Assembly: GCF_000017845.1 (NCBI RefSeq)
Contig: NC_010546.1
Location: forward strand, 1,380,001 to 1,412,000
Direction: 5' to 3'
DNA: 32,000 nucleotides
Source: Crocosphaera subtropica ATCC 51142
GTDB lineage: Bacteria; Cyanobacteriota; Cyanobacteriia; Cyanobacteriales; Microcystaceae
Below are positions 7,278-25,741 of this stretch, in pieces (position 1 is the first letter of the stretch; each line of letters starts with the position of its first letter). The position numbers were made by a program, and so were the translations under genes. The notes under the pieces are model-generated. The model worked only from the letters and a program-made list of their open reading frames with translations, searched no databases and was not told the origin of the DNA.

Positions 7278-7310
7278 GGGTTGACCTCGATTTCAACTCA
7301 TGAGTATTTT

Positions 7311-7340
7311 AATATACCAGCATAAAGGAAATCGTGACAA
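7311..7340 (-). promoter_or_regulatory. Candidate promoter for dctQM
   Basis: On the minus strand: TTGTCA (7340-7335), an 18 nt spacer, then TATATT (7316-7311). Lies about 35 nt upstream of the TTG start at 7277. Confidence 0.3.
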
Positions 7341-7390
7341 GTTTATAGCATTATGATTATTTTTTTTAACAATTATCTGTCATTTTAGTC

Positions 7391-9296: not shown

Positions 9297-10349
9297 ATGA
9301 ATAAAAAGACTGATACTCCTATGACATCTCTCACCTCAGACTCCCATCATGACCTTCCTTGGTGGAATCGTCCTGTGATGGGAGAAGATAGTCTTGTAGA
9401 GGACTTACTGGGAAAGTTCAGTAAGCAAGAAGTCTCAGAAAGTGCGCTATTTTTGCATAATCGGGAGATGACCGATCTTAAAGTCTTTGCTAAAACAGCC
9501 GCAGCTATTGACAATGAGAAGTTTGGGCAAGAAGAGTTTTTGATCTTTGTGAAAATGCAGTATCTACTGCGTAAGGACATCCATGAGTATCAGGGACTTT
9601 ATGAGAGTTTACAACTGCTAAAAGTGGCTATTGATGCTAAAGATTGTTTTATCTCCATTGACCAAGCCGAATTACGGTATCGTGGGACAAAGCAACAAGA
9701 ATTTTATAATTTTGTGGAAGGTTTATTATTAGATCACGAAAATAAAGCCGTGTTTCGTGAACAAGTTCAAACGAGATTGGCTGACCTTCTACCCCAAATT
9801 AAAACAGAAGAAGGAAGAACTGCCTTACAAAACTATGCTAAATATCTCGATCAATTATCCGATAATGAATTAGGGTTAAAATTGTTGTCCCTGTTCAAAG
9901 CTTATCAACTGGCTGACTATTCTATTTTGCGGGTTATTTCTGAGTTGATTCAAAGTTTAGGGAAACGGGATTTATTAGACTTTAAGGGATTAGTTTCGTT
10001 GGTGAGAGTTAATTATGGTCTGTTTGAAAAATTACGGGAAATTATTGGACTCTCTGAACGACAAAGTACCCCCGAAACCTATGGGTTAATGATTCAGTTT
10101 ATTGCTTTATCTAATCGACACGGCATTTCTCATATGAAGTTTGATGACTTAATGAAGGTGATGCAAAAATGGTATAAACCTTATCAAGCTGTCTTAGGTA
10201 TTCGTCAAGAACATCCCCCCAGTGAATATAAACAACCGAAAGAATTTAAGGAAGCCATTCCAGGGGTCGAAATTTATGAAAAGTACAAGAAATGGTTAAC
10301 CGATAAGAAAACAGGTATGGTCTTCATCGATTTTGGGGATGAAAATTAA
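9297..10349 (+). CDS. Hypothetical protein, predicted all-alpha soluble
   Basis: 350 aa ORF with a strong SD ('agaggaga') about 8 nt upstream of the ATG. Coding-like composition, no TM segment, no motif I recognise. Confidence 0.7.
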   Translation: MNKKTDTPMTSLTSDSHHDLPWWNRPVMGEDSLVEDLLGKFSKQEVSESALFLHNREMTDLKVFAKTAAAIDNEKFGQEEFLIFVKMQYLLRKDIHEYQGLYESLQLLKVAIDAKDCFISIDQAELRYRGTKQQEFYNFVEGLLLDHENKAVFREQVQTRLADLLPQIKTEEGRTALQNYAKYLDQLSDNELGLKLLSLFKAYQLADYSILRVISELIQSLGKRDLLDFKGLVSLVRVNYGLFEKLREIIGLSERQSTPETYGLMIQFIALSNRHGISHMKFDDLMKVMQKWYKPYQAVLGIRQEHPPSEYKQPKEFKEAIPGVEIYEKYKKWLTDKKTGMVFIDFGDEN

Positions 10350-10530: not shown

Positions 10531-10887
10531 ATGAGCTACGCTATTATTGAGGCAGGGGGAACCCAAATTCGGGTTGAGCCTGGCCGTTTTTATGATATTA
10601 ATCGTCTTACTGCTAACGAAGATGGTTCCTATGTCATTGATAAGGTCTTATTAATTAACAATGATGATGAAATCACCATTGGACAGCCTTATATCGAAGG
10701 GGCAACGGTAGAAGGAACGGTTCTTGAAGAACGACGGGGACGCAAGGTCATTGTTTATAAAATGCGCCCCAAAAAGAAAACTCGTAAAAAACGGGGTCAT
10801 CGTCAAGAATTAAGTCGTTTAATGATTAATTCTATTAGTCTCAATGGTTCTGTTATTGCAGAGACAACCTCAGACAGCGAAGAATAA
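10531..10887 (+). CDS. rplU: 50S ribosomal protein L21
   Basis: 'MSYAIIEAGGTQIRVEPGRFYD...KVIVYKMRPKKKTRKKRGHRQ' is canonical L21. The ORF track's TTG at 10492 adds 13 non-conserved residues. ATG at 10531 is preferred. Confidence 0.93.
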   Translation: MSYAIIEAGGTQIRVEPGRFYDINRLTANEDGSYVIDKVLLINNDDEITIGQPYIEGATVEGTVLEERRGRKVIVYKMRPKKKTRKKRGHRQELSRLMINSISLNGSVIAETTSDSEE

Positions 10888-10926
10888 TCCTACAATAGAC
10901 TTAATATTACAAAAGAGATAACGATT

Positions 10927-11190
10927 ATGGCTCACAAGAAAGGAACAGGAAGCACTAGAAACGGAAGAGACTCTCGGTCCCAGCGACTCGGAGTGAAACG
11001 CTACGGTGGACAAGTTGTTAAAGCTGGCAACATTCTTATTCGTCAACGGGGAACAAAAGTTCACCCAGGCAATAACGTAGGACGGGGTAACGATGATACC
11101 CTCTTTGCTTTAATTGATGGGATTGTTACTTTTGAGTATAAAACCAAAAGTCGCAGAAAAGTCAGCGTTTACCCTGTAGCTGCTGAATAA
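10927..11190 (+). CDS. rpmA: 50S ribosomal protein L27
   Basis: '[48 protein letters not shown]' is canonical L27. Lies directly downstream of rplU. Confidence 0.96.
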
Positions 11191-11210
11191 CTTTAATAAC
11201 TTTAATCGTA

Positions 11211-11264
11211 ACCAGAGATCAGTGAACAGTTGTCAATTAAACTGCACTGATCTCTGGTGTTTTT
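11211..11264 (+). terminator. Rho-independent terminator of rplU-rpmA
   Basis: Perfect 14 bp stem: accagagatcagtg (11211-11224) pairs with cactgatctctggt (11245-11258). 20 nt loop, followed by gttttt (11259-11264). Lies 20 nt after the rpmA stop. Confidence 0.75.
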
Positions 11265-11364
11265 AAGATGAATCAACTAATAAGTTATACTCATATCTTA
11301 CACCTTCGATTAAATTTAGCTAGTTTGCAAGCGTTCAACTATCAGCCGTCAGCTATATTTCTAT

Positions 11365-12285
11365 TTATTTTCCTTTGAGAATTTTCTTAACTCGTTGCAA
11401 TACTTTTGTTTTGATTCCTGTCTCTGTTTTAATTAATTCTCCATCGTCTGGTACAGTTTCTCCGAGGTAACGATAGTGTTTCCAAATATCCCAATAAGGA
11501 CAACCTGGTTGAATTTTAATACCTGCCCAATGTAAATAATGAAGGGTTTGATTATTGCTTGGATCAATTAATTGATAACCATTTTGTTGAAAATGACTGG
11601 TTCCTGCCCAATTACCAGGGTTTTTTTCAGGTTCGTGGGCTAGATTAAACCGTTTTTCAACATTTTTTAAAATCATATAATTAATAATTGGCTGATCGGA
11701 GGTTTTATAAGTAAAGTCAAAATAGTCTATATTTTCTGCACATTCTTCAAAGATTTGATAAATTTTTTCTTCGGACATTAATCCTTTTTTTGATGCCCAA
11801 AATCCGCCGTTAAACATATCCCTAAGTTCACTTTCAGCAAAAACTTGATCATCAATTACTTTTTGAGAAAAGACATTACGAATTCCTGCTTTATGTTGAT
11901 AATCATAACAAATAAAATCATAATCTGTAAAATAATTTAAGTCATCAACTATTTTTTTGAAAACAACAATATCTGTGTCAATATAGAGAAATTCATCAAA
12001 TTCACCGAACCAACAAGCTTGTTTCCGAAATTGATTAGGACGGGCAAAAAAGTCTTCTCCAAAAATACTTTGTAATTTAATCGATAGTCTTTCAATAAAG
12101 TCTAAATCAGGATAAACAGTGACACCAAAATCTTCATTTAGTTTCTTAGCAATGATGTGATAATTATCATCATAGGGAATGAGAACAACCGGGGTATCTT
12201 TGTCATAAAATCGAATACTTTTTAATAGGGCGATCGCTTGCTCAATAACTTTATCATTAGCAGTAATATAAATACCACGGGTCAT
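11365..12285 (-). CDS. GT-A fold (GT8-like) nucleotide-sugar transferase-like protein, paralog A
   Basis: 306 aa. DxD-type motif 'FLYIDTDIVVF'. Shares collinear motifs with the upstream gene (ND.V..Q..ALL.SI / PYDDN / YD.QHK / SKK.L.SEEK / DQ..INYM / TSHF / YRY). 11 nt gap to the upstream gene. Confidence 0.55.
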   Translation of the reverse strand: MTRGIYITANDKVIEQAIALLKSIRFYDKDTPVVLIPYDDNYHIIAKKLNEDFGVTVYPDLDFIERLSIKLQSIFGEDFFARPNQFRKQACWFGEFDEFLYIDTDIVVFKKIVDDLNYFTDYDFICYDYQHKAGIRNVFSQKVIDDQVFAESELRDMFNGGFWASKKGLMSEEKIYQIFEECAENIDYFDFTYKTSDQPIINYMILKNVEKRFNLAHEPEKNPGNWAGTSHFQQNGYQLIDPSNNQTLHYLHWAGIKIQPGCPYWDIWKHYRYLGETVPDDGELIKTETGIKTKVLQRVKKILKGK

Positions 12286-12296
12286 CAGTTTTGCCT

Positions 12297-13292
12297 CTAC
12301 TTAGTTAATCCTAATTTTTTGAGAATTTTTTGTTTTAGGTTAGGCTTTTGTTGATAATATACAGCTTTTTGGTTAAATTGAGGTAATTTTTCTAGATCAT
12401 GATAATAACGATAATACAGGAATATATCTCGATAGGGAAAATCAATGTTTTCTCCTTCACATACCTTCCTAAAAATCTGTGAGGAAATACCAATATAATG
12501 AATATAGGTTAATCGATTTCCTTTATCATAAAGAATATTATTTTTATTTTCAAAATGAGAAGAGGTGACACAACATCCTGTTTTTTGATCATTAGGTAAA
12601 CTTAAAGCGAAATTATAAATAGAACAACCATGACGCATCATCATATAATTAATAACCGTTTGATCAGGTGCCATACAGTATAATATTTCTGCTTCTCCTT
12701 TTTCTAAGTAGTTGATTAATTCGTTTCTTTTCTCTTCGGAAAATAAGTCTTTTTTTGAGCCATAAAAGCCTGAGCAAAAAATTTCTGTTTTTAATCTTTC
12801 TTCTGGAAAAACTTTCGTTAACTTATTTGACTTAACATCATAAACATGGGTTAAATCTTTATGCTGAAAATCATAAATAATGCAATCATTTGTCTCTAAT
12901 TGAGCAAAAATAAACTCTAGAGGACTCATCAAAATGCTGTCAGCATCCATGTAAACAAAGCGATCAAAAGGACCATCAAAAGCACAATAACGGCGATGGG
13001 TTCCAAACCGATGATAACCCTTGCTTCCTGCTTTTTCCCAGGTTTGACGGGCTGTTGGATGGGTATCCCAAACCGCTTTAGCAAAGCTATCCCATCGCTT
13101 TATAGAAACAGAATCATCGTACAATGTGACCTGGGGACGGGATGCAATTTCTGCTGCCAACTTTTCTGTATTATCATCATAGGGATAAATACAAACAGGC
13201 ATTTTTTTGTCATAAATTGCTTCAATACTGTTCAGTAAAGCGACAATTTGATCGAAAACGTAATCATTCCCTAACGTACAAATTCCATCCAT
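12297..13292 (-). CDS. GT-A fold (GT8-like) nucleotide-sugar transferase-like protein, paralog B
   Basis: 331 aa. DxD-type motif 'FVYMDADSILM'. Paralogous to 11365-12285 (see motifs there). 21 nt gap to the upstream GT10-like gene. Confidence 0.55.
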   Translation of the reverse strand: MDGICTLGNDYVFDQIVALLNSIEAIYDKKMPVCIYPYDDNTEKLAAEIASRPQVTLYDDSVSIKRWDSFAKAVWDTHPTARQTWEKAGSKGYHRFGTHRRYCAFDGPFDRFVYMDADSILMSPLEFIFAQLETNDCIIYDFQHKDLTHVYDVKSNKLTKVFPEERLKTEIFCSGFYGSKKDLFSEEKRNELINYLEKGEAEILYCMAPDQTVINYMMMRHGCSIYNFALSLPNDQKTGCCVTSSHFENKNNILYDKGNRLTYIHYIGISSQIFRKVCEGENIDFPYRDIFLYYRYYHDLEKLPQFNQKAVYYQQKPNLKQKILKKLGLTK

Positions 13293-13313
13293 ATTTAATA
13301 ATAGTTAAACTAT

Positions 13314-14312
13314 TCAAAATTTTGTCACAAAATCAGATAACCAATTCATTAAATTAAGTTCATGAAGAATAATTTGTCTTGCTTCTGCGATCGCCGATTT
13401 TGCTTCGTGCCAAGCATCCAAACTAGCCGTCACTTCTCTGATATATTGTAATCCTTTTTCATCAAGACTCGGTAATCTTAAAAAGCTACCTGGTGGCAAT
13501 AATTTATCGGCTGCACTTCCCCCATAATAAATGGGTAAACACCAACATAACAAAGCATCCCATAATTTTTCGCTGACATACCATTCATTATCAGCATAAT
13601 TTTCAATGGATAAATTATAATAATAAGGAGCCATACCGTGCCATTTATTCTCTAAAGTGCCTTGACTATTTGTTGACTCAGGTAAATTTCTTCCATAAAG
13701 ATCAAACTCAAAATTATTATCCCTTAATAACTGTAAAAAACCCAGACGATGGCGATGATTTTCTGTGCGATTAATTCCCGATGTTATCCAACTACATCGT
13801 TTAACTTTTTCAGGAATATTGCCCTTATCTAAAAAGTCAAACTCATGGTTAATATACCAAATTGCCGGCATATAATCAGGATTGGGTGAAAAATTGTCTG
13901 GCCCTGAAACATAGCCACAATAATGACTGGCATCGTTATAATTAGCGCAGTTTCTGTTAACAACTTCTTCTAAAGGGGGTTCTCTTAATAAATACATGAT
14001 ACGCTCTTTAGGAACACCTCTGAGTAAAGAAGGAATATTAGGAGGTGAAACTTGAGAATTTCGCCATGATTTCCACCAAGGTTGAGGAGGAGAGGGTAAG
14101 GGAAAATCAAACTGATATAATAATAAAAAATCAGGATTAGGAGCATTTGCCAACATTTGAATGTTATTCCAAACGCCAAAGGCTTGAGGGGTTTGTTTCC
14201 ATAACCAATCTCGTCTATTTTGTAATCCTGAATAACTGCTTAGCATTCCAATGGTCTTTTGACTCACACAATCATTCCTCTTATTAGGTTCAGTTATCTT
14301 ATTAAGTATCAT
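13314..14312 (-). CDS. Glycosyltransferase family 10 (alpha-1,3-fucosyltransferase)-like protein
   Basis: C-terminal 'YNLSIENYADNEWYVSEKLWDALLCWCLPIYYGG' matches the GT10 motif (compare H. pylori FucT 'CFENSQGYGYVTEKI.DAYFSHTIPIYWG'). The true start may be the internal Met (MLSSYSG). Confidence 0.6.
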   Translation of the reverse strand: MILNKITEPNKRNDCVSQKTIGMLSSYSGLQNRRDWLWKQTPQAFGVWNNIQMLANAPNPDFLLLYQFDFPLPSPPQPWWKSWRNSQVSPPNIPSLLRGVPKERIMYLLREPPLEEVVNRNCANYNDASHYCGYVSGPDNFSPNPDYMPAIWYINHEFDFLDKGNIPEKVKRCSWITSGINRTENHRHRLGFLQLLRDNNFEFDLYGRNLPESTNSQGTLENKWHGMAPYYYNLSIENYADNEWYVSEKLWDALLCWCLPIYYGGSAADKLLPPGSFLRLPSLDEKGLQYIREVTASLDAWHEAKSAIAEARQIILHELNLMNWLSDFVTKF

Positions 14313-14709
14313 ACTAAACTTTGGTCAAGGTGGGTTTGAAGACGTTAGGATTTAGAAATTAAATTTACCGTTAAGCACTCTAACTAATAACTAAAATTGA
14401 CGATGCTATTCGTTTTTCAAAATAACTGATAGACGATAACAGCGATTTTCAATTGAGTGGCAAATCTAGGAATCTAACTCCTGCGGACTGCCTCAAAGCT
14501 AAAACGTTTATAGTCTATGGAAATGAAAACTGCTATAAATTTTGTCGAAATTTTGTTAAAGCATAAATTGACCAATGGTGATTAAGATAACAGGAAGCAA
14601 CAAGAGGGCGATCGCCAGCAATAAGATTATAGAATCCGTTAACTTTCGTCATTTTTTGTGTAGTTGATCTTTGATAGAATAAATATTAATTATTAATAGT
14701 TAACTATAG

Positions 14710-16122
14710 TTGAAACACAATAGACAAACATATACTTTTGACCGACGGCAAATCATCAGGCTCATCTTTCTGTCTGGAGTGATGATGGGTTTACCCCTAG
14801 CTTGTCATCGCTCAAAGACAAATATATCAAGCAAAAACCATAAGTTTGATTGGCAACAATTTGCAGGAGAAGAGATTTTCTTGTTACTCGATGATCATCC
14901 TTGGACAGAAGGACTCAAACCTTATGTATCAGATTTTGAGGCGTTAACCCATATTAAGACCAATATCAAAATAGTCCCTGAACCTGAATACTTTAAGGTG
15001 ATGGAATCTACGATTCAAGCTGAGACAGAAGAAGTTGATGCCTTTTTTTTACCGATGGATTCCACTGCCTATCGATTGTGGCGTAAAGGTCTATTGCACT
15101 CTTTAACCCCCTTGATTAATAATCCTCAATTAACCTTGTCGGATTATAATTTTTACGATTTTCCTGAGAACTTTCGGCTAGTGGGAATGTATCCCCCAGA
15201 AAGTCCTAATAGTGAATTATTTGGGATTCCTGCTACTTTTGAAGCCTATATTCTTTTTTATAATAAGATATTAATCAATCAATATTTGAATGGTCTTGTC
15301 CCCAAAACGATGACGGAACTGGTGGACGTTGCTCTCCAACTCAAGGAAATGGGAGAGGGCAAGTTTTTTGGGGCAGTTATGCGGGGAATCCCTTCAGATA
15401 CCATCATCGATACAGTTACGGGTATTCTCCTCAACCATTGGGGATCGCAGCCTTCTCCTTTACCCCATAACATCTGGTTCGATGGAGATTGGCAAAAACC
15501 ACGCTTAAGCGACCAACGAATTAGGGAAGGATTAAGAAACTATGCCAAACTAATGCAAGCAGGACCCCCTAATATTAAAGAGATGGATTGGCCTGAGGCT
15601 ACTCGTCTCTTCCGAGAAGGAAAAGCAGCCTTTTATATTGATGCGAGTCTGTTTGGACCAGACTTTGACAACCCAGAAGTATCGGACATAGCAGGAAATG
15701 TTGGTTATACGGTTTTGCCCCCTTCAGGAAAGACAAGTATGACTGGTCATTGGCTTTGGGGATTAGGGATTGCTCAAAAGTCAAAAAATCCCCAAGCGGC
15801 CTGGTTATTTATTCAATGGGCTACCAGTCAAGCCATAGAGCGCAAAATTAGCGTGGTTACTGGTGGCGCGCCTCGATTTTCATCTTGGGTTACACCTTCA
15901 GTGTACACAGAAGCCATGAATATTGATTATGCTTTAGCAGTGCAAACGGCCATGCGTACCTCCCGTCCGACGGTTGTTCTGCATTCAAATTGGAATCAAG
16001 TGGCTAAAGCCATTGCCACCACTATTCAAGAGATTTATGATGGTGCTAAGCAGGAGGTCGCTGTAGCTAAACTGCAAACCCAGATCCAGCAAATGATGGG
16101 TGGCTTCCCAGAGGATGATTAA
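14710..16122 (+). CDS. Periplasmic solute-binding protein, ABC family-1 (sugar-type), orphan
   Basis: 470 aa. N-terminus 'FDRRQIIRLIFLSGVMMGLPLAC' looks like a Tat-type signal with a lipobox-like Cys. 'AFYIDASLFGP' and 'GHWLWGLGIAQKSKNPQAAWLFIQWATS' are typical of SBP_bac_1 proteins. The TTG start directly follows an in-frame TAG. No ABC permease or ATPase gene is nearby. Confidence 0.8.
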   Translation: MKHNRQTYTFDRRQIIRLIFLSGVMMGLPLACHRSKTNISSKNHKFDWQQFAGEEIFLLLDDHPWTEGLKPYVSDFEALTHIKTNIKIVPEPEYFKVMESTIQAETEEVDAFFLPMDSTAYRLWRKGLLHSLTPLINNPQLTLSDYNFYDFPENFRLVGMYPPESPNSELFGIPATFEAYILFYNKILINQYLNGLVPKTMTELVDVALQLKEMGEGKFFGAVMRGIPSDTIIDTVTGILLNHWGSQPSPLPHNIWFDGDWQKPRLSDQRIREGLRNYAKLMQAGPPNIKEMDWPEATRLFREGKAAFYIDASLFGPDFDNPEVSDIAGNVGYTVLPPSGKTSMTGHWLWGLGIAQKSKNPQAAWLFIQWATSQAIERKISVVTGGAPRFSSWVTPSVYTEAMNIDYALAVQTAMRTSRPTVVLHSNWNQVAKAIATTIQEIYDGAKQEVAVAKLQTQIQQMMGGFPEDD

Positions 16123-19025
16123 TGTCACATAAACTGCACTGTTTGAGAACAATTCGGGGTCAACTGATGTTAGGATTTGGGGGAATTCTACTGTTGAACT
16201 TGATCAGTGCGTTTATTATTTATGGAACCTTACAACATTTTCGTTACCGCGCTCAAGCAACAATTGATTATGCCACTCGTGTGCGAGAATTAAGTCTAGA
16301 ACTAAAAAATAATTTTTTACTGGCTCGAAAAGCTGAAGATATTTTATTAGATAACTGGCAACTCAAAAAAGTAAGTCCAGCGATTCAAAACGCCATCAAT
16401 AACCAAGAAAATTATCTAAACCAAGCTCGTCAAAACCTTTCTGCTATCCAAACCCTACAGAAACAAAACTCAGATATTGAAGCAGAACTGACCATACTTC
16501 AATCCTTATTTACTAACTATGAATCTGCGTTTCAAGGAACGGCTAAGCGAATTATTGCTCACGATGAAGGATACCAACTCCATCAACAACTGCAAATTCT
16601 CATCAACCAGTTCGTTAATGACAGAACCCTGGCAAGAAATCGGACCATTGAGAGTCTTCTGTGGACAGCGATCGCAGAACAACAGAAATATTTTCAAACT
16701 AACAAACAAGGTTCTCCTACGGATTTACGGGCTAGTCTCGACCAACTAGAAACTGCTTTAAAAGCCCATCAAAGCAAGACACCGATTCACACCTTAGCCC
16801 AGGACTATACGACGACCCTGGATACTCTTTTATTATTAGAGCAACAAGTTTTATTTAATCAGATTGTTGCAGAAAATATTAATAAGGAAATTGATCACAT
16901 TATCGAGGTGATTGGCCAAAAGAGTAAAACCCAAGCAGAGCAAGCCCGTTTAGGCTTAATACAAACCGCTAATTACACTCGTATCGGTCTATTAATCACA
17001 GTTATTACGGCATTAGCCCTGACCTTGTGGGTAAGTTTATGGCTTGGAAAAACCATTGTTCAGCCGTTAACCCAATTAACAGACGTTTCAGAACACATTG
17101 CCAAGGGGTCTTTAGAGGAAACATTGAACTTTTCGGCCAGTAATGAATTTGGCATTGTGGCCACTGCCCTCAATAAAATGCTCATTCAATTGAGAGAAAC
17201 CTTAGCAGACCTTGAAGACAGGGTGAGAGAAAGAACCCAGGCATTAGAGGCTAAAACCGAATCTCTCGAAATTACTCTTAAAAAATTGCGTTTCAGTCAA
17301 GCTAATTATCATCAACTGATTAATAATCTTCAGGCCGGGGTGATTATCTATGACCCTAGGGGTAACATGATGATGGCTAACTTAGCAGCTTCAGAATTAT
17401 TGGACATATCCTCTGAAAGTTTATCTCTCTATTCTTCTCCAGAAGCAAGGGTAACCTTCGTTGACGAGTCAGGAGCAACACTTCCCCCACAAGAGCATCC
17501 TTGCCAACAAGTTTTGACCACCCAAGTCCCATTACACAATTATGTCATGGGTATTCACCGACAACGGCCCCTAGACTCTATTTGGACGTTAGTGAATGCG
17601 TTTCCTGCTTTTGATGATCAGAACCATTTAACTCAGGTAGTGGTACTCCTTCTTGATATCACTGATCGTAAGTTAGCTGAGGAACAGTTGCGCTATCGTG
17701 CGCTCCATGACGCTTTAACAGGGTTGCCTAACCGTACCCTCCTCACAGAACGGTTAGACCATGCTATCCAACGGGTTAAACGTTACCCTGACAGTCTCTT
17801 TGCGGTGTTATTTATTGATTTAGACCGTTTCAAAGTGATTAACGATAGTTTAGGCCATTTAGTCGGTGATCAACTGCTCATATACATTGCTAATACCCTA
17901 AAACGCCATGTTCGTAGTAGTGATACGGTGGCACGACTGGGAGGGGATGAATTTGTCATTCTTCTGGAGAATTTGACCAGTCCCCATGAAGTGGTACAGG
18001 TGATTGAACGAATTGAAAAAGATATTAAAAAGCCCATTCAGTTGATGAATAAAACTCTTTTTACCTCGGCCAGTATTGGCATTGCGTTGAGCAGTCCAGA
18101 GTATGGTACTGGAGAAGATATTTTGCGGGATGCTGATAACGCTATGTATCGGGCTAAAGGTAATAATCTCACAAGTTACGAACTGTTTAATGTGGAAATG
18201 CGTCAGACAATGTTAGAAGTCTTTGAGCTTGAAACGAGTTTGCGACAAGCATTAGAACAGCAACAATTTATCTTGCATTATCAACCGATTGTTTCTGCTA
18301 CGTCTTTGGAATTATTGGGGTTTGAAGCTTTAGTGCGTTGGGTACATCCTGAAAAGGGGTTGATTTCTCCAGGAAAGTTTATTCCGTTGGCCGAAGAAAC
18401 AGGATTAATTATTCCCTTAAGTGAATGGATTTTCCAAGAAGCTTGTAGTCAGATGGCACAGTGGTGCGCTGATTTTCGGATGGCTAGTTCCCTAAAAATG
18501 AGTATTAATATTGCTGCTTATCATTTTCAATCCCCTCAATTTTTGGAAAAAATAGACCAAATTTTAACTGAAACTCAGTTACTGGGAAAGAATCTGAAAT
18601 TAGAGATAACAGAAAGTTTGCTGATTAAAAATACCGATAGATTCCTGTCTCTTGTGCCTCAGTTACAACAACGGCAAATTGAAATTAGTCTTGATGATTT
18701 TGGGACAGGTTATTCTTCTTTGAATTACTTAAAACGGTTTCCCATTAATACTCTTAAAATTGATAAATCTTTCGTTGATGGTCTTGATTATCAGAAAAAT
18801 CAAGCAGATGTTAGTATTATTGAGGCTATTATCCATATTGCTCAATCCCTAGGCATGGATGTCGTGGCTGAAGGGGTTGAAACAGATCGGCAACGTCAAC
18901 AGTTACAACAGTTGGGATGCGAAGCAATTCAAGGATATTTAATGTCTCCTCCTTTAACTTCTGAGAAGGCTAGAGAATTTATTAATCGTCAGTTATCAGT
19001 AACCAGTGATCAGTCTCATACTTAA
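16122..19025 (+). CDS. Membrane sensor protein with periplasmic helical domain, HAMP, PAS, GGDEF and EAL domains
   Basis: 967 aa. TM1 at about aa 17-36, a helical periplasmic region of about 250 aa, TM2 at about aa 285-308, then HAMP. PAS ('LQAGVIIYDPRGNMMMANLAASELLD'). Intact GGDEF (aa 607-611, nt 17940-17954) with upstream 'DALTGLPNR'. Intact EAL (aa 735-737, nt 18324-18332) plus 'DDFGTGYSSL', 'KIDKSF', 'EGVET', 'QGYL'. The ATG overlaps the SBP stop (TAATG). Confidence 0.92.
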   Translation: MSHKLHCLRTIRGQLMLGFGGILLLNLISAFIIYGTLQHFRYRAQATIDYATRVRELSLELKNNFLLARKAEDILLDNWQLKKVSPAIQNAINNQENYLNQARQNLSAIQTLQKQNSDIEAELTILQSLFTNYESAFQGTAKRIIAHDEGYQLHQQLQILINQFVNDRTLARNRTIESLLWTAIAEQQKYFQTNKQGSPTDLRASLDQLETALKAHQSKTPIHTLAQDYTTTLDTLLLLEQQVLFNQIVAENINKEIDHIIEVIGQKSKTQAEQARLGLIQTANYTRIGLLITVITALALTLWVSLWLGKTIVQPLTQLTDVSEHIAKGSLEETLNFSASNEFGIVATALNKMLIQLRETLADLEDRVRERTQALEAKTESLEITLKKLRFSQANYHQLINNLQAGVIIYDPRGNMMMANLAASELLDISSESLSLYSSPEARVTFVDESGATLPPQEHPCQQVLTTQVPLHNYVMGIHRQRPLDSIWTLVNAFPAFDDQNHLTQVVVLLLDITDRKLAEEQLRYRALHDALTGLPNRTLLTERLDHAIQRVKRYPDSLFAVLFIDLDRFKVINDSLGHLVGDQLLIYIANTLKRHVRSSDTVARLGGDEFVILLENLTSPHEVVQVIERIEKDIKKPIQLMNKTLFTSASIGIALSSPEYGTGEDILRDADNAMYRAKGNNLTSYELFNVEMRQTMLEVFELETSLRQALEQQQFILHYQPIVSATSLELLGFEALVRWVHPEKGLISPGKFIPLAEETGLIIPLSEWIFQEACSQMAQWCADFRMASSLKMSINIAAYHFQSPQFLEKIDQILTETQLLGKNLKLEITESLLIKNTDRFLSLVPQLQQRQIEISLDDFGTGYSSLNYLKRFPINTLKIDKSFVDGLDYQKNQADVSIIEAIIHIAQSLGMDVVAEGVETDRQRQQLQQLGCEAIQGYLMSPPLTSEKAREFINRQLSVTSDQSHT
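18990..19017 (+). repeat. STRR-like heptamer tandem repeat (CAGTNNN x4)
   Basis: cagttat cagtaac cagtgat cagtctc. Overlaps the last 12 codons of the GGDEF-EAL ORF (tail ...RQLSVTSDQSHT*). Confidence 0.6.
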
Positions 19026-19028
19026 ATG

Positions 19029-19129
19029 ATATGAAATCTCTTTGAATACTATACTTTATAGTAGGGGGAGCAGGGAGCAGGGGTTTGCCGTCATGATTTT
19101 AATGATGAGTCATTAAGGGGATTTCATAT
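19029..19129. repeat. Inverted-repeat-flanked G/A-rich repeat element between convergent genes
   Basis: Arms atatgaaatc (19029-19038) and gatttcatat (19120-19129) flank GGGAGCA GGGAGCA GGGG (19066-19083). It shares the GGGAGCAG core with the reverse complement of the 5251-5293 repeat. It could double as a terminator hairpin. Confidence 0.45.
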
Positions 19130-19133
19130 GAGA

Positions 19134-21329
19134 TTAATTAATCCCCAAATCAATATGTTGATCTTTAAAACTAATTACTCTTTCCCCAATTATAACTTGA
19201 GAATCTAAGTGATTATTGATAATTTTTAGGTTGGGAATCTTATTTTTTTCAACTGTCATCACCACAAAAAAGTCTCCTGTTCCTGTTGCAATAATTCTTT
19301 GATTATCTTTTTCATAGTTTAAGTTGATCGTTTCAGGAGTAATAAAAGTTCCTTTCATCGTGACATCCCGATCTCGTTTAATTAGAAAAGTATTATTTTC
19401 AATAGTGACATTTCCTTCAGTATTCATGACCCAAGTATGATTATTTTTATGATCATCAAATTGATCAACAATAGCAAATAAACCAGGAACCCCTGAAATA
19501 TTAGAGTAATCAACAGCAAAGGATCTTAACCAATCTTTAGCTTGTAAACTAACAACACCTGAACCATCTTTTTTATCTTTCAAATAAATAGTTGTCATTG
19601 TTATTGCATTAGGATTTTCTTGAATAATAATATTTTCATTTTCCGGTTTATTATTACTTTCCCCTGCGATCGCCCAATTTTCCCCTAGTCCCCAAATGCG
19701 AAAACTTCCAGCATCGGGGAATGACCAAGACTTCGTTAAATATTCTCGTTTTCCATAGATACTCGCCACAAAATCATTTTTGTCTTTCCATTGATTACGA
19801 AAAGAATAAAATCCTTTTTGTTCATCTACTAAAACGTTATCAAAAATCTGGGAAGGATGTTTAATAACTAAATGATTGGGATAATTAATAAATAAAAAAA
19901 CACCATCTAAAATATTCTTAATACCAAAACTTTGGTTTCCATTTTCTCCCCAATAATGATCAAATCCCCACATAATACCAGGCAAAAACTTAAGGGGAAC
20001 TAATCCCATTCCCATGGCAAATAATGATCCCCCTGAATAATATCGATGTCTTCCATAACTAGGAATCGGATAACTATTCTTTCTTGGAACAATTCGCATT
20101 AAATACTGAGGTAATAACCAAGCTAAATTAGAATTTTCAGTGGCAAAATTTTTTCCTTTCACATGATAGTAACCTGTAAAAAAAGGAAACAAGGTTAAGA
20201 TAAATGGTTCAGTGGTATAGTGATCCCCTTCCGTACCAAACCCCTTGTCACCCATCGCTGTTTCTAGATAGCGAATCATGTTGCGCTTAGCAATGGTTAA
20301 AAGTTGTTCAATATTGATATCTGGGGAAAAATAGCCTTCTGGTTCTTTTAAAATGGCTAATGCAGCCAATCCTGCAGCCCCTCTTGCTCTGGCATTCCAA
20401 TTACTCCAGGCTGTGGGGTTCCAACCTCTATCTGGGGTTCCTTCGATTAATAATTGTGTTTGTTGAGCCAGCCAATTAGAGACAAGAATGCGATTATTAT
20501 TCTCCCAATAAGCGTAACATAAATCATAAGCGATCGCTATTCCTGTGACCACTGGGGACAGTTCAAATAAGCGACGATAGGAGGTATTAATCGCCTTTTC
20601 TACCACTGTCCAAGCCTGAGCAGCTTGTTTGGGTTTTTCTTTAATTAAAGCGAGAAAACATTGTCCTGCTGCGTGATATCCTGCATTGGGAACATAGCCA
20701 TCATAAATAACAGGTTGATTGAGTGTTTTTTCTAATTTATTAAATATTTTTTTGCCAATTTTTGTTGTTATTTTTTGACGTAATTCTGGCACCCTTGTCT
20801 CTCGAAATAGTAACCGAGGATGTTCTTGAGGGTGAATCGGTCGATGATCTATCAAAGGTTGAGGGTATAGTGGATTGATGGTTCCAGAAACTTTTCCTTG
20901 TAATACTTTATTGTTAAATTTTCCTTGATAATTTCCGATTAAAAGATTATTATTTTTTTTAATTAATTCAATTTCATAATTAGCCTTTCCTGACAATGAT
21001 AACCAAGGGTCCCGATTGATGAGTAAATCAACGTCTAAAATCCACTGATTATGGGATTGATTGATAGTAACAGTTCCTTGATGTTCTGCTTGATTAAACT
21101 CAGGAGCAAACCCCCAAATCTCAGAAGTACAATGATTATTTTCACAAATTACATCTAGGGTAATATCTTGATAATCAATTTCGTTATTAGAGTTTCTCCA
21201 AAGGGCTTTTTCTAGAACGATGCTAACTTTTCCTGACAAAGAATGAAAGGAGAAAGTGGGGGTATAAACTCCCAACCCTACCCAATAAATTGTCATGATT
21301 ATTATGATAAATAATCGAGATTTAATCAT
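19134..21329 (-). CDS. Heparinase II/III / alginate-lyase-like (alpha/alpha toroid + beta-sandwich) protein with N-terminal signal or anchor
   Basis: 731 aa. Hydrophobic N-terminus 'LFIIIIMTIYWVGLGVY', then a beta-rich region of about 130 aa. 'HPRLLFRETRVPELRQKI', 'SNWNARARGAAGLAALAI' and 'GTEGDHYTTEP' resemble heparinase II/III-DUF4962 signatures recalled from memory. The ATG overlaps the upstream stop (ATGA). Confidence 0.55.
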   Translation of the reverse strand: MIKSRLFIIIIMTIYWVGLGVYTPTFSFHSLSGKVSIVLEKALWRNSNNEIDYQDITLDVICENNHCTSEIWGFAPEFNQAEHQGTVTINQSHNQWILDVDLLINRDPWLSLSGKANYEIELIKKNNNLLIGNYQGKFNNKVLQGKVSGTINPLYPQPLIDHRPIHPQEHPRLLFRETRVPELRQKITTKIGKKIFNKLEKTLNQPVIYDGYVPNAGYHAAGQCFLALIKEKPKQAAQAWTVVEKAINTSYRRLFELSPVVTGIAIAYDLCYAYWENNNRILVSNWLAQQTQLLIEGTPDRGWNPTAWSNWNARARGAAGLAALAILKEPEGYFSPDINIEQLLTIAKRNMIRYLETAMGDKGFGTEGDHYTTEPFILTLFPFFTGYYHVKGKNFATENSNLAWLLPQYLMRIVPRKNSYPIPSYGRHRYYSGGSLFAMGMGLVPLKFLPGIMWGFDHYWGENGNQSFGIKNILDGVFLFINYPNHLVIKHPSQIFDNVLVDEQKGFYSFRNQWKDKNDFVASIYGKREYLTKSWSFPDAGSFRIWGLGENWAIAGESNNKPENENIIIQENPNAITMTTIYLKDKKDGSGVVSLQAKDWLRSFAVDYSNISGVPGLFAIVDQFDDHKNNHTWVMNTEGNVTIENNTFLIKRDRDVTMKGTFITPETINLNYEKDNQRIIATGTGDFFVVMTVEKNKIPNLKIINNHLDSQVIIGERVISFKDQHIDLGIN

Positions 21330-23515
21330 GAAACGAAAATAAAATGATGACTGTTTAAATCTAAATTGGTTGCATTTTTTACAATACCAATTAATTCATC
21401 TTCCATGCCAGCAACTTTGAGAAAAATTCCTTGATCATTAGCTTTAAAGGGAGAAGAACCCAGATAGTAGTTATTAGCTGTGCCATGTAATTGAATTATA
21501 TCTTGAGCCATATCAAAATCAACAATTTCTGCATAATCTTGTTGTCCATAGTTATCATAAAACGATTCACTTTCATTTCCTAGAGCATAAATCTTTCCAT
21601 TGATAGTCTGAGTTTGAGAATGACTCAATCCCGTTAAAGGATCAACAGCAGATCCATTGAAGTTACCATTTCCTTCTATAGCTAAGAAATTGATATTTTC
21701 AGTCGTATGATTGGTTTCACTGTCGTTGCTAGTATCTTCTTCAACCATGATTTGAACATTGCCATTAGTGAGGTTTTTATATCTTAATCCTGAAGGATCG
21801 GGACCATCAAAAGTGGCAATATTGCCTAAGAATTTAGGAGCATTGCTGAAATGATTGCCAAAATCAATACTATGCCAGTTATGGGTAACCTTATCTCCAG
21901 TATTACCTGCTATAAACCCCTTACCATCCCAATTTCCTTGACCGGGAGAAATCGCTAACCAAGCAATAGTTTCTGAACCATGTCCAGTGAACTTAAATGC
22001 TTCTTCTTCTTCTAAAGCCACTTCAAATCCATGATTAGTGGCATTCTTTTGACGGGTTCGCACAAAGGTTGGATCATTATCGGTTTGAACTTGAGTTAAA
22101 ACCACAGGGGTATTAGTAAAGTTGTGATTGAAGTTAATCGTTTCCCAAGTTGAGGTGGTGGTTGCATCTGTTGTGACGTTGCCTACCTCGATAATTGTGC
22201 CATCAGACAGTTCCCATCGTCCCTGTTCAACCACTAAAAAACTAAACCTTTCTGTTGTATGGTAACCATTATGAGATTTACCCCTAATTAAAGTTGTCTC
22301 TTGAAGTTGCACGGTAAAGCGATCGCTTTGAATATCGGTAATTCTTATGGTCGAAGGATCTGGACCATTATAGGATAAGGGTTGAGCAAAAATAACAGGG
22401 TTAATAAAGTTATGATTCAGGGAAATGGTTTGACTTTCATGGTTTAAATTAGTAATTTGTCCAATTTCGGCAATGACAGCATTATTATCAATAGGAGTGT
22501 CTTCAACTGCGTCTTTGAGTTCAATTGATGATGTGTCGATAGCTTCTGAAGAAGCTGACATTTCTAAGATGGCGTTCCCTAATTTTTCGATGTTTAATAA
22601 TTTCCCTTCGTATTGGGGTTGATTAACAACATTGTCCCCTTGTGCAAGTAACTCTCTAATCCCCAGTTTAATAACTTCCCCTGTGGTTTCATCAATAATG
22701 CTGTTTAGGGGTAATTTGTATCCCAACTCTTGCACCGCTAACTGTTGCGCTACGGCGATCGCTCCAGTCACATGGGGAGCAGACATACTGGTTCCTGATA
22801 GGGTCGTCGTTCCTCCATTATTATTAGCTGCTGTAATACCCACCCCAGGAGCAAAAACGTCAGTTAAATCAGGATGATGTTGGGAAAAACTAGCAATTTC
22901 ACCTTTATTATTAACAGCAGAAACCGCTAAAGAATTGATACTTGCTGCTGGATAGGAAACGCCATCTTCTCCTGTATTACCCGCAGCAGAAACCACAATC
23001 ACATCATTATTAACTAACGCTTGTAACTCATCATCAATGATATTGCCAAAAAACCAGGGAGATTGATAGTTCCGTCCATTACTAAGGGACATATTCACAC
23101 TAGCAATATTATAGGTATCATGGTTATCCACCACCCATTGTAAAGCCTGTTCAATATCATAAAGATTGGCTTTATTATTATTATCAAAAACTTTGAGAGC
23201 AATAATGTTAACCCCAGGTGCTATCCCTGTATAGGTCGGATCGCTTGAAGCAGCAATGCTGGCCACATGACTTCCATGCCTATTAGGATCACTAGCATTA
23301 TTATCATCATTACTGGTAGGATCGCTAAAATTTTCTAATGGAGTAGAAGCAAAATCATAATGGTAAACAATCCGATCCGCTACATTATTCTTATCAAGAT
23401 CAGGACCAAAAAAAGGATGGTTTAAATCTATTCCCGTGTCTATAATGACGACAGCATAGCCAGATCCATCAATACGCTTGCCGTTATTATCGAAAAAAAC
23501 ATCATAATTAGTCAT
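21326..23515 (-). CDS. S8 family (subtilisin-like) serine peptidase with three tandem lectin-like repeats and a cyanobacterial C-terminal module
   Basis: Catalytic triad motifs: 'VVIIDTGID' (Asp26), 'HGSHVAS' (His80), 'AAGN' (Asn180), 'GTSMSAPHVTG' (Ser243). Three repeats of about 90 aa lie at aa ~350-615. The C-terminus is 'DIIQLHGTANNYYLGSSPF...GIFL...DELIGIVKN'. No signal peptide or propeptide. Confidence 0.88.
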   Translation of the reverse strand: MTNYDVFFDNNGKRIDGSGYAVVIIDTGIDLNHPFFGPDLDKNNVADRIVYHYDFASTPLENFSDPTSNDDNNASDPNRHGSHVASIAASSDPTYTGIAPGVNIIALKVFDNNNKANLYDIEQALQWVVDNHDTYNIASVNMSLSNGRNYQSPWFFGNIIDDELQALVNNDVIVVSAAGNTGEDGVSYPAASINSLAVSAVNNKGEIASFSQHHPDLTDVFAPGVGITAANNNGGTTTLSGTSMSAPHVTGAIAVAQQLAVQELGYKLPLNSIIDETTGEVIKLGIRELLAQGDNVVNQPQYEGKLLNIEKLGNAILEMSASSEAIDTSSIELKDAVEDTPIDNNAVIAEIGQITNLNHESQTISLNHNFINPVIFAQPLSYNGPDPSTIRITDIQSDRFTVQLQETTLIRGKSHNGYHTTERFSFLVVEQGRWELSDGTIIEVGNVTTDATTTSTWETINFNHNFTNTPVVLTQVQTDNDPTFVRTRQKNATNHGFEVALEEEEAFKFTGHGSETIAWLAISPGQGNWDGKGFIAGNTGDKVTHNWHSIDFGNHFSNAPKFLGNIATFDGPDPSGLRYKNLTNGNVQIMVEEDTSNDSETNHTTENINFLAIEGNGNFNGSAVDPLTGLSHSQTQTINGKIYALGNESESFYDNYGQQDYAEIVDFDMAQDIIQLHGTANNYYLGSSPFKANDQGIFLKVAGMEDELIGIVKNATNLDLNSHHFIFVS

Positions 23516-23830
23516 TTGATTTTTCCCACTCTTACCATTGCTGTTGACTACAAGTTCAAAAAAATTAATAAAATTAGGTTTTTAAAAATTAACGTTCTGA
23601 ACTTAAAAAAGTTCCTAAAGCCTCATTCATCTTCATCACAGGGGAATGAAATCAAACCTTCCGTGAATTTTCGTGATCTAGTCAATCAGACAATTATCAA
23701 GAAATAGAGAATAAACTATTATCAATTAAGCTTCTGATTATCAACAAAATGGATGGCCCTACTCTTAGGACGGGAAGGATGTCAAAATAAGATATAACAA
23801 TCAAATCAAGATGGTAGAAAGCAAACCATT

Positions 23831-25741
23831 ATGAATTTAAGTGATATTACTCATCCCAACCAGCTACATGGTTTATCAAATCGACAACTAGAAGATATTG
23901 CCCGTCAGATTCGAGAAAAGCATTTACAGACCATCGCTGCAAGTGGAGGACATCTAGGACCTGGGTTAGGAGTAGTAGAGTTAACCATTGCTCTTTATCA
24001 AACCCTTGATCTAGATCGAGATAAAGTCATCTGGGATGTGGGTCATCAAGCCTATCCCCATAAGATGTTAACAGGTCGTTATCATCGTTTTCATACCCTA
24101 CGGCAAAAAGACGGCATTGCTGGCTACCTAAAACGTTGTGAAAGTAATTTTGACCATTTCGGGGCCGGACACGCTTCTACAAGCATTTCTGCCGGGCTAG
24201 GGATGGCATTGGCTAGAGATGCAAAAGGAGAAGATTATAAGGTTGTCTCTATCATTGGGGATGGGGCGTTAACCGGTGGCATGGCCTTAGAAGCTATTAA
24301 CCACGCAGGACATTTACCCCATACAAATTTAATGGTGGTGCTAAACGATAATGAAATGTCCATTTCTCCCAATGTGGGGGCTATTTCTCGCTATCTCAAC
24401 AAAGTCCGTCTCAGTGATCCGGTGCAGTTTCTCTCAGACAACCTCGAAGAACAATTTAAGCATTTACCGTTCTTTGGAGAGTCTTTAACCCCAGAAATGG
24501 AACGGGTTAAGGAAGGGATGAAACGCCTAGCTATGCCTAAAGTTGGGGCGGTGATTGAAGAATTGGGCTTTAAGTATTTTGGACCTATCGACGGCCATAA
24601 CTTGGAAGAGTTAATTAGTACCTTCAAACAAGCGCACAAAGCAGGTGGTCCTGTCTTCGTTCATGTGGCCACGGTGAAAGGAAAAGGCTATGAACTCGCA
24701 GAAAAGGATCAGGTGGGCTACCATGCTCAAAGTCCCTTTAATTTAGCAACGGGTAAGGCAATTCCCTCTAATAAACCTAAACCTCCTAGCTATTCCAAAG
24801 TTTTCGCCCATACTTTGACGACCCTGGCGCAAAATGATCCTAAGATTATTGGCATCACTGCAGCGATGGCCACCGGAACCGGACTCGATAAACTTCATGC
24901 TAAACTGCCAAAACAATATATCGATGTCGGTATCGCTGAACAACACGCAGTAACGTTATCGGCCGGTTTAGCTTGTGAAGGAATGCGGCCAGTAGTGGCG
25001 ATTTACTCCACGTTCTTACAACGGGCTTATGATCAAGTGTTACATGATGTGTGTATCCAAAATCTCCCCGTCTTCTTCTGTTTAGACAGGGCTGGTATTG
25101 TCGGGGCCGATGGACCAACCCACCAAGGACTTTACGACATCGCCTATTTACGTTGTATTCCTAATCTAACGATTATGGCCCCGAAAGATGAGGCAGAATT
25201 ACAGCGCATGGTGGTAACTGGCATCAATCATACCGATGGACCGATCGCCATGCGTTATCCTCGCGGTAGTGGTGTGGGTGTTCCCTTGATGGAAGAGGGT
25301 TGGGAACCTGTCTCCATCGGTAAAGGAGAAATTCTTCGCAATGGCGATGATGTGCTTCTGGTTGGTTACGGAACCATGGTTCATCAATCTTTACAAGTGG
25401 CCGAAATTCTCAAGGAACATGGAATTGAAGCAACGGTGGTCAATGCCCGTTTCGTTAAACCGTTGGATACGGAGTTAATTGTGCCATTAGCCCAGCGTAT
25501 TGGTAAAGTCGTCACCTTAGAGGAAGGCTGTTTAATGGGTGGTTTTGGTTCGGCTGTGGCTGAAGCGTTACTGGATCATGACGTAGTGGTTCCGATTAAA
25601 CGGTTTGGGGTTCCTGATAAATTAGTGGATCACGCTAAACCGGATGAGTCAAAGGCTGATTTAGGGTTAACCAGTCCTCAAATTGCTGAGGAAATTCGAC
25701 AACTTTTCTTTAACACACCTCAACCTTCTGCGGTGAGTTAA
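23831..25741 (+). CDS. dxs: 1-deoxy-D-xylulose-5-phosphate synthase
   Basis: 636 aa. '[18 protein letters not shown]', '[16 protein letters not shown]', the TPP motif '[18 protein letters not shown]...NDN', and '[11 protein letters not shown]'. Confidence 0.96.

Follow-up and report, generated by a model that had tools for sequence, protein, structure and literature searches.

We analysed a 32,000-nucleotide stretch of the genome of Crocosphaera subtropica ATCC 51142 (NC_010546.1, positions 1,380,001 to 1,412,000), referred to here as the window and numbered from its first letter. A block within it, at 11191-23830, lies between rplU-rpmA and dxs and is occupied by seven open reading frames (ORFs), with no unrelated genes between them in the ORF map and in Pfam and NCBIfam scans. 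We conclude, with a probability of roughly 75%, that this block is an old five-gene Crocosphaera glycan cluster plus a two-gene signalling cassette that was inserted separately, and not one acquired module. The cluster lies on the minus strand and comprises a trio of glycosyltransferase (GT) genes (unit 1) and, now apart from them, an S8 subtilase gene with a lyase-like gene (unit 3). The cassette (unit 2) lies on the plus strand between the two and encodes a solute-binding protein (SBP) and a membrane protein with GGDEF and EAL domains. An earlier description made from the letters alone (the sequence-only reading) had suggested that the seven genes may act as one sense-synthesise-remodel module; its gene content, strands and coordinates were borne out by the ORF map and the same scans. 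The genes are as follows.

11365..12285, minus strand: cce_1393 (GTa), GT-A glycosyltransferase of the Npun_R2821/R2822 family, last gene of the trio (NF045582, 334.6 bits)
12297..13292, minus strand: cce_1394 (GTb), GT8-like GT-A glycosyltransferase of the Npun_R2821/R2822 family (NF045582, 448.1 bits)
13314..14312, minus strand: cce_1395, GT10-like glycosyltransferase, first gene of the trio (PF00852, 42.5 bits)
14710..16122, plus strand: cce_1397, orphan CUT1-type sugar SBP, annotated "putative ABC transporter for sugars" (SBP_bac_1, 84.2 bits)
16122..19025, plus strand: cce_1398, predicted membrane cyclic di-GMP (c-di-GMP) enzyme (Pfam EAL 252.8, GGDEF 165.5, HAMP 40.6 bits)
19134..21329, minus strand: cce_1399, predicted heparinase II/alginate-lyase-fold protein (AlphaFold 2 and Foldseek)
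21326..23515, minus strand: cce_1400, S8 subtilase (PF00082, 141.8 bits)

The cut-offs were 250 bits for NF045582 and 23.9 bits for PF00852.

The evidence that carries this conclusion is the arrangement of the same genes in relatives, which we found through homologs of the SBP, the lyase-like protein and GTb; the window proteins were mapped onto all loci (given L numbers below) by tblastn, and the dxs/rpmA neighbourhoods of Crocosphaera watsonii fall outside this comparison. Read along the minus strand, the window has the order S8, lyase-like, SBP and GGDEF-EAL (both antisense), GT10, GTb, GTa. The whole order recurs in SU3, in Crocosphaera chwakensis CCY0110 and at L022, and L031 follows it as far as its contig reaches, a stretch that takes in rpmA, the GT trio and part of the SBP gene. 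At L016, where the lyase-like protein is 68% identical, dxs is followed by S8, lyase-like, GT10, GTb and GTa and then by a UbiD gene; the five genes are co-directional, there is no cassette, and the gap between the lyase-like and GT10 genes is 105-137 bp. At L014/L015 (lyase-like protein 66% identical) the same five genes are again contiguous and co-directional, here beside glnA rather than dxs. Because the five are contiguous and co-directional in genomes that lack the cassette, we take units 1 and 3 to be one ancestral cluster, and its intact presence at a different chromosomal site at L014 suggests that it has moved as a unit.

The junction between the lyase-like and GT10 genes accepts different insertions in different lineages. 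In Crocosphaera sp. XPORK-15E and UHCC 0190, an antisense ankyrin-repeat gene occupies this site, and at L038, whose contig ends before the presence of the cassette can be judged, an AAA gene and an IS605 TnpB gene lie directly downstream of the lyase-like gene (12139-14391). The occurrence of IS605 OrfB/TnpB at both edges of the cassette site (L022 and L038) suggests that the junction is prone to insertion.

In a neighbour-joining tree of the concatenated GT trio with Anabaena cylindrica as outgroup, the cassette-bearing genomes were monophyletic (100/100 bipartition support); L016 was their sister (91/100), followed by L014 (100/100) and then by the two ankyrin-bearing genomes. The cassette clade is thus nested in cassette-less lineages, which calls for a single gain as against at least three independent losses. 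Comparing synteny in relatives had been suggested by the sequence-only reading, and the outcome divides the block: the five-gene cluster is present throughout the Crocosphaera genomes seen, and only the 4.8-kb cassette is variable and confined to one subclade.

Outside Crocosphaera, the cassette stands by itself. At all 11 non-Crocosphaera loci with contigs long enough to judge (L005-7, L023, L024, L026, L028-30, L035 and L036), an SBP ortholog (60-65% identical) is directly followed by a GGDEF-EAL ortholog (50-54%), and tblastn found no GT, S8 or lyase-like homologs on these contigs. Three of the 11 are named (Nodosilinea LEGE 06152, Leptolyngbya CCNP1308 and filamentous cyanobacterium CCT1), and eight are metagenome contigs. 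The neighbours of the free-standing cassette vary and include an OmpR-Hpt regulator with a PAS kinase, an LRR-Roc-COR-TIR protein, an epimerase, an ABC exporter and ThiO-ThiG. The claim of a single module therefore survives in part: units 1 and 3 do form one contiguous cluster at L014 and L016, but unit 2 came later, is found in one subclade only and is free-standing in all 11 of the other loci.

These arrangements suggest the following history. An ancestral minus-strand cluster would have run from an S8 subtilase with a lectin domain through a membrane-anchored lyase/epimerase-fold protein and a GT10 enzyme to two GT8-like GT-A enzymes. In the common ancestor of ATCC 51142, CCY0110 and SU3, the cassette would have been inserted antisense at the lyase-like/GT10 junction, splitting the old cluster into two transcription units and creating a new, unconstrained divergent spacer.

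A carbohydrate-related role for the five-gene cluster is plausible from its predicted folds and domains, namely GT10, GT8-like GT-A, a lyase/epimerase fold and an H-type lectin. The GT-A and lyase-like identifications of the sequence-only reading held up, both folds appearing in the predicted structures. GTb (331 aa) has an invariant DxD motif (D116, D118), and its AlphaFold 2 (AF2) model, with a mean local confidence (pLDDT) of 88.9, has a GT-A fold that matched WbbM, LARGE1, XXYLT1, glycogenin and LgtC in Foldseek, the GT8-like enzymes WbbM, XXYLT1, glycogenin and LgtC with E values of 7e-8 to 3e-5 and TM-scores of 0.45-0.5. GTb has 1310 homologs and remains 65-70% identical across distant cyanobacterial orders. 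GTa is 31% identical to GTb, so the two are paralogs; it is soluble, with no transmembrane segment, its DxD motif reads IDTD, and it matches Pfam Mannosyl_trans3 at 24.3 bits (cut-off 22). By an above-threshold C-terminal domain, cce_1395 ranks as a putative member of GT10, the alpha-1,3/4-fucosyltransferase family; the match is limited to the nucleotide-sugar domain (residues 167-282), and matches to alpha-1,3-fucosyltransferase structures are weak. A search of the accessible literature on Npun_R2821/2822/2823 found no paper. The trio looks like a core cytoplasmic step of glycan assembly, with the three soluble GTs presumably assembling a short glycan at the cytoplasmic face.

In the AF2 model of cce_1399 (731 aa; pLDDT 90.9, predicted TM-score 0.89), a hydrophobic N-terminal helix (signal or anchor) precedes two beta-sandwiches with an (alpha/alpha) toroid between them. 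Foldseek matched it, with E values of 1e-15 to 7e-19, to heparinase II, the alginate lyase Atu3025, glycosaminoglycan lyases, lyases of polysaccharide lyase (PL) families PL17 and PL33 and dermatan-sulfate epimerase (entries 3e7j, E = 6.8e-19; 3a0o, 8.6e-19; 6hzn, 1.2e-15; probability 1.00). The likeness to heparinase II (PL21), Atu3025 (PL15), PL17, PL33 and dermatan-sulfate epimerase 1 is one of the whole three-part fold (TM-scores 0.54-0.61), whereas identity is only 11-15% and the cce_1399 family is specific to cyanobacteria and has an N-terminal anchor. No Pfam match, heparinase included, was found at an E value of 1e-3 or below, and the NCBIfam HepB model gave 21.9 bits against a cut-off of 600. 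Invariant residues of the family include H170, Y268, N304, N310, Y371, R427 and H428. As modelled, cce_1399 is probably a periplasm-facing uronate-polysaccharide lyase or C5-epimerase. It has an N-terminal signal or anchor, and its structural relatives all act on uronate polymers; the simplest guess at its role is that it edits an acidic polysaccharide of the envelope. In alginate operons, the periplasmic lyase AlgL and epimerase AlgG are encoded together with the biosynthetic genes. The position of cce_1399 beside glycosyltransferases is similar and by analogy suggests editing of a self-made uronate polymer, although, unlike the alginate operons, the block lacks a polymerase, an exporter and a c-di-GMP receptor (Alg8 and Alg44 have no equivalents in it). 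The family is widespread in cyanobacteria (133 matches), with a second copy, cce_3968, 45% identical, in the same genome; distant relatives lie in unrelated contexts at L013 (9054-12271) and L011 (10001-12220), and the Aphanothece hegewaldii gene overlaps a UbiA prenyltransferase gene.

The gene for the S8 subtilase, cce_1400, overlaps that of cce_1399 by 4 nt. The protein has an intact D-H-S triad and no signal peptide, propeptide or transmembrane segment, and its closest solved structures are intracellular subtilisins and Tk-subtilisin. When its C-terminal half, which contains similar repeats, was scanned alone, H_lectin scored 24.8 bits against a cut-off of 24. Among the Crocosphaera relatives compared (L012, L014, L016, L019 and L038), the S8 protein ranges from 715 to 1145 aa, and good alignment is limited to the catalytic domain (55% over 377 aa at L016), which points to rapid evolution of the C-terminal lectin-repeat region. 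As a pair, the S8 and lyase-like genes are an addition specific to Crocosphaera, and their products presumably process a uronate-containing envelope glycan or a glycoprotein. We rejected cce_1400 as a cyanobactin or other RiPP (ribosomally synthesized and post-translationally modified peptide) protease, since the PatA/PatG model gave 57 bits against a cut-off of 421 and precursor and partner genes are absent. An anti-phage defence system was likewise rejected, PADLOC having returned just a generic subtilase match.

It could be objected that the trio and the S8/lyase-like pair are functionally unrelated and adjacent merely because the compared genomes are close kin. The partners do occur apart. 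In Anabaena cylindrica (L017), the trio is orthologous (65-67% identity) and in the same order, but the cluster to which it belongs also has GT4, GT11 and an ABC exporter, and S8, lyase-like and cassette genes are absent. Microcystis has GTb on its own, and lyase-like homologs of 55% identity or less are solitary, in unrelated contexts, in Rippkaea and Aphanothece. UHCC 0190 has lost the lyase-like gene and kept S8 and the trio, and the S8 protein, with no signal peptide, resembles intracellular subtilisins. Against this, the five genes have stayed contiguous and co-directional although their flanks were rearranged (UbiD, heme oxygenase, glnA, a 7-kb insert), the L014 cluster is intact at another chromosomal site, and all five encode carbohydrate-related folds or domains. 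We therefore regard a mere accident of neighbourhood as unlikely and keep to the reading of an ancestral five-gene cluster.

The second alternative is the single acquired module of the sequence-only reading, in which the SBP would sense a sugar, c-di-GMP from the GGDEF-EAL protein would act by way of the shared spacer to control the GT operon, and remodelling of the product would fall to the S8 and lyase-like proteins. In its favour, the units are contiguous, with their order held in five subclade genomes, the SBP is of a sugar-binding class, and exopolysaccharide production is commonly under c-di-GMP control (PMC8846402). The basal Crocosphaera genomes, which keep the other five genes without the cassette, and the free-standing cassette of the 11 other loci speak against it, as do the composition, the spacer and the searches for c-di-GMP effectors described below; taken together, they make this model improbable.

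The block shows no compositional anomaly. The GT and lyase-like genes had been estimated by eye at 25-30% GC and thought more AT-rich than their flanks; measured values are 31-36% (GTa 31.3%, GTb 32.8%, GT10 35.5%, lyase-like 34.2%), and they are matched outside the block by aroK (34.0%), hrcA (33.7%), cce_1402 (25793-27595; 33.7%) and two Uma2 genes (30.7-32.5%), petB and dxs being the GC-rich extreme of the window. Comparisons of GC, codon usage and tetranucleotides, of the kind that had been proposed as a check, did not set the block apart from the rest of the window, the 32-kb window itself being the reference. Its GC content is 36.7%, against 37.5% for the remainder, and the ranges of GC at third codon positions (GC3) overlap; codon-usage distances of the block genes (0.057-0.091) fall at the low end of the window's range, and by tetranucleotides the distance from the remainder of the window is 0.209 for the block versus 0.198 outside it (Mann-Whitney p = 0.35). 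There are no tRNA genes in the window and no direct repeats flanking the cassette, and the Pfam scan found no integrase. Horizontal transfer of the block was thus rejected on GC, GC3, codon distance, tetranucleotides and the lack of tRNA genes and flanking repeats. The GT trio, present across cyanobacteria, is ancient and vertically inherited.

The spacer between the GT10 and SBP genes (14313..14709, no strand, 397 bp) is just as had been described in position and divergence, but its reading as a shared control region finds no support. It is poorly conserved, its length being 397 bp in the window, 338 bp in CCY0110, 71 bp at L031, 66 bp in SU3 and 1529 bp at L022, where it holds a 1.3-kb insertion sequence element with a 436-aa IS605 OrfB/TnpB gene (6526-7836, minus strand). 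Alignments with SU3, CCY0110 and L022 show conservation only over about 65 nt beside the SBP start (~14645-14709), that is, on the SBP side alone. This conserved segment includes an extended -10-like sequence, TGnTAGAAT, at 14672-14680, which is likely, from its sequence, to be the SBP promoter. A HIP1 palindrome, GCGATCGC, lies at 14608-14615 in the same spacer. The tiny annotated ORF cce_1396 (14453-14652) is probably a spurious call; the ORFs there are only 21-39 aa long and unconserved in relatives, and its expression is 0-25 reads per kilobase per million (RPKM).

We found no specific tie between cassette output and the neighbouring glycan genes. No Rfam family, c-di-GMP riboswitches included, matched 10800-24200 at an E value of 1 or below, and we accordingly rejected riboswitches, for c-di-GMP or any other ligand, in the spacers. 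Among the block proteins, Pfam and NCBIfam detected neither PilZ nor any other domain known to bind c-di-GMP, which sets the block apart from c-di-GMP-controlled glycan operons of the vps, pel, bcs or alg type. Scans of the block for sigma-70 promoters (53, versus 45 +/- 7 in shuffled sequence) and terminators (10 versus 9.6) did no better than in shuffled sequence.

In published RNA-seq data, expression is low: the eight genes cce_1393-1400 have RPKM values of 12-86, change by at most 2.3-fold and fall into three clusters, and none was detected in the proteome (PMC4630603). The differing cluster labels and small changes speak against a single module, although correlations in these data are erratic even within the GT operon (r = 0.08 for GTa versus GT10). 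The in-phase oscillation of cce_1395, cce_1398 and cce_1399 in continuous light would favour one, but the correlation of the three genes with rplU and cce_1390 is equally strong or stronger (r = 0.62-0.97), and the oscillation is therefore not specific to the block. On balance, expression argues neither for coupling of the units nor against it.

Several points weigh against our own conclusion. The polarity of the insertion comes from a tree of the GT genes themselves and from metagenome bins, not from a genome-wide species tree. Every subclade member seen here (the window, SU3, CCY0110, L022 and L031) has retained the cassette at this site, which is compatible with a selected local function. 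The in-phase oscillation of cce_1395, cce_1398 and cce_1399 in continuous light (microarray, r = 0.32-0.80; PMC4431719) makes some co-regulation across the three units possible. "Surface glycan" is a label that we infer, given that the block has no flippase, polymerase or exporter. Pfam and NCBIfam found no initiating transferase, flippase or ABC exporter, polymerase or outer-membrane export protein among the seven proteins, and because flippase, polymerase and exporter are lacking, the block could not produce a surface polymer unaided. The missing signal peptide of the S8 protein makes its action in the periplasm or at the surface uncertain.

The cassette itself has a clear architecture. The start codon of cce_1397 is TTG, and the protein sequence of the N-terminal extension (DRRQII...LPLAC) is conserved; orthologs whose alignment reaches the N terminus keep the twin arginine, and all orthologs have a Cys some 15-20 residues beyond it. 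The twin arginine and lipobox-like Cys together indicate a lipoprotein exported by the twin-arginine translocation (Tat) pathway. The closest solved structures are SBPs for sorbitol, trehalose/maltose and sulfoquinovosyl-glycerol, and none of the 18 structure matches is a polyamine SBP, so that cce_1397 does not fall in the PotD/NspS type. In Chloroflexota, SBP homologs (47-53% identical) are followed directly by two BPD_transp_1 permease genes, and the ancestor of this SBP was therefore an ordinary CUT1 importer protein. No permease gene lies near the SBP gene in the window block or among the neighbours examined at orthologous non-Crocosphaera loci, and the SBP is thus no longer part of a recognizable CUT1 importer.

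The start of cce_1398 overlaps the stop of cce_1397 by 1 nt (16122). The predicted topology of cce_1398 is a transmembrane segment (aa 15-33), a helical periplasmic region of about 250 aa, a second transmembrane segment (288-306), HAMP, PAS, GGDEF and EAL. Its GGDEF domain has an RxxD I-site and its EAL domain all of the usual catalytic motifs; the RxxD-GGDEF, EAL, DDFGTGYSS and EGVE motifs are kept, with single substitutions at most, in 14 of 14 full-length GGDEF-EAL orthologs. The SBP gene is followed by the GGDEF-EAL gene in all 14 orthologous loci with long-enough contigs, from which we infer co-transcription.

In Vibrio cholerae, and also in Sinorhizobium meliloti, the NspS SBP gene lies directly upstream of that for MbaA, an inner-membrane protein with a periplasmic domain and cytoplasmic GGDEF and EAL domains; NspS takes no part in transport, and MbaA is bifunctional (PMC8079147). 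The cassette has the same layout, cce_1397 lying directly upstream of cce_1398, with two transmembrane segments around a periplasmic domain and cytoplasmic GGDEF and EAL domains. Unlike NspS, a polyamine binder of the PotD/NspS type, cce_1397 is of the CUT1 carbohydrate class and has a Tat-type signal and a lipobox-like Cys, and unlike MbaA, whose motifs read SGDEF and EVL, cce_1398 contains a PAS domain in addition, its GGDEF and EAL motifs are fully canonical, and it has the RxxD I-site. Because the SBP class differs, we regard the cassette as a functional analogue of NspS-MbaA rather than a member of its family. ChvE-VirA, LuxP-LuxQ and TorT-TorS are alike in that a free periplasmic binding protein informs a membrane signalling protein, and differ in that the output there is a histidine kinase; ChvE is itself a sugar-binding SBP.

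By this analogy, we propose that the SBP is the periplasmic co-sensor of cce_1398 and that the cassette most likely works like NspS-MbaA, with a sugar-type SBP instead. A Tat-signal lipoprotein of the CUT1 sugar-binding class, having lost its ABC permeases, would be translationally coupled to a membrane HAMP-PAS-GGDEF-EAL enzyme; with its ligand bound, the lipoprotein would attach to the periplasmic domain (about 250 aa) of the enzyme and switch the latter between making and hydrolysing c-di-GMP. At four non-Crocosphaera loci, a gene for a GH63/MGH1-like hydrolase (~930 aa) lies directly upstream of the pair on the same strand (L005, 6946-9753; L007, 7002-9740; L027, 4738-7536; L030, 7198-7623), and this recurrent neighbour may hint at the class of ligand (alpha-glucosides or compatible solutes).

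A very unlikely further reading is a self-sensing loop, in which the SBP would bind oligosaccharides freed by the lyase-fold enzyme from the cell's own uronate-rich envelope polymer and c-di-GMP from the GGDEF-EAL enzyme would feed back on glycan production; if true, insertion into the very cluster that it targets would have recruited the pair as an equivalent of NspS-MbaA that senses carbohydrate.

The idea of one acquired module was thus a false lead, the AT-rich genes being native and vertically inherited and the signalling cassette the sole clear addition. The five-gene cluster becomes a candidate locus for envelope-glycan editing in ecologically important marine nitrogen fixers. The widespread but uncharacterised cassette, found in several cyanobacterial genomes, combines a CUT1 SBP that has exchanged its ABC permeases for a GGDEF-EAL enzyme carrying both motif sets; if it acts like NspS-MbaA, it would provide a carbohydrate input into c-di-GMP signalling. 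ATCC 51142 is well studied genetically and transcriptomically, so the idea is easy to test there.

Three other elements bound the units.

11212..11264, plus strand: predicted intrinsic terminator hairpin 3' of rpmA, CCAGAGATCAGTG...CACTGATCTCTGG followed by a T run, read from the sequence
19026..19133, no strand: convergent spacer between the cassette and the lyase-like gene, with an imperfect 22-nt inverted repeat (19029-19050 / 19108-19129; arms 77% complementary)
23516..23830, no strand: divergent spacer between the S8 gene and dxs

The hairpin marks a putative transcriptional boundary between the ribosomal genes and the block, and the inverted repeat may act as a bidirectional terminator.

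The block had been described as anchored by rpmA and dxs (cce_1392 and cce_1401 in published tables). Both rplU/rpmA and dxs do flank it here, but the rpmA side is broken in relatives by UbiD or by 7 kb of other genes, and S8-dxs adjacency was found in six of the seven relatives where it is visible (L003, L004, L012, L016, L019 and L038; not L014). SU3, CCY0110 and L022 have a gene for a UbiD-family decarboxylase, 502 aa long where read, between rpmA and the GT trio (L003, 5412-6920; L022, 1972-3480), and at L016 one of 429 aa (15350-16639) adjoins GTa. The rpmA-GT gap in the window is just 175 bp (11191-11364), so UbiD has been lost or relocated in ATCC 51142. At L020, the same junction is filled by about 7 kb of trypsin-like and toxin-antitoxin-like genes.

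Just past dxs, cce_1402 (25793-27595, minus strand) encodes a 600-aa protein with many predicted transmembrane segments and no Pfam match; its N-terminal region has what we take to be a loose likeness to GT-C/ArnT-like glycosyltransferases, an impression only. In the continuous-light microarray data, its oscillation is opposite in phase to that of the block genes and coincides with that of the adjoining Na+/solute symporter (r = 0.95). Two convergent Uma2-family endonuclease genes (29572-30150, plus strand; 30158-30799, minus strand) have the lowest gene GC of the window. On the other side, dctQ and dctM of a TRAP transporter lie at 5393-7277 (minus strand), with no dctP solute-binding gene anywhere in the window. 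Upstream of rplU, cce_1390 (9297-10349, plus strand) encodes a conserved 350-aa hypothetical protein with no Pfam match; its synteny is preserved in all close relatives, and the gene oscillates together with rplU (r = 0.85).

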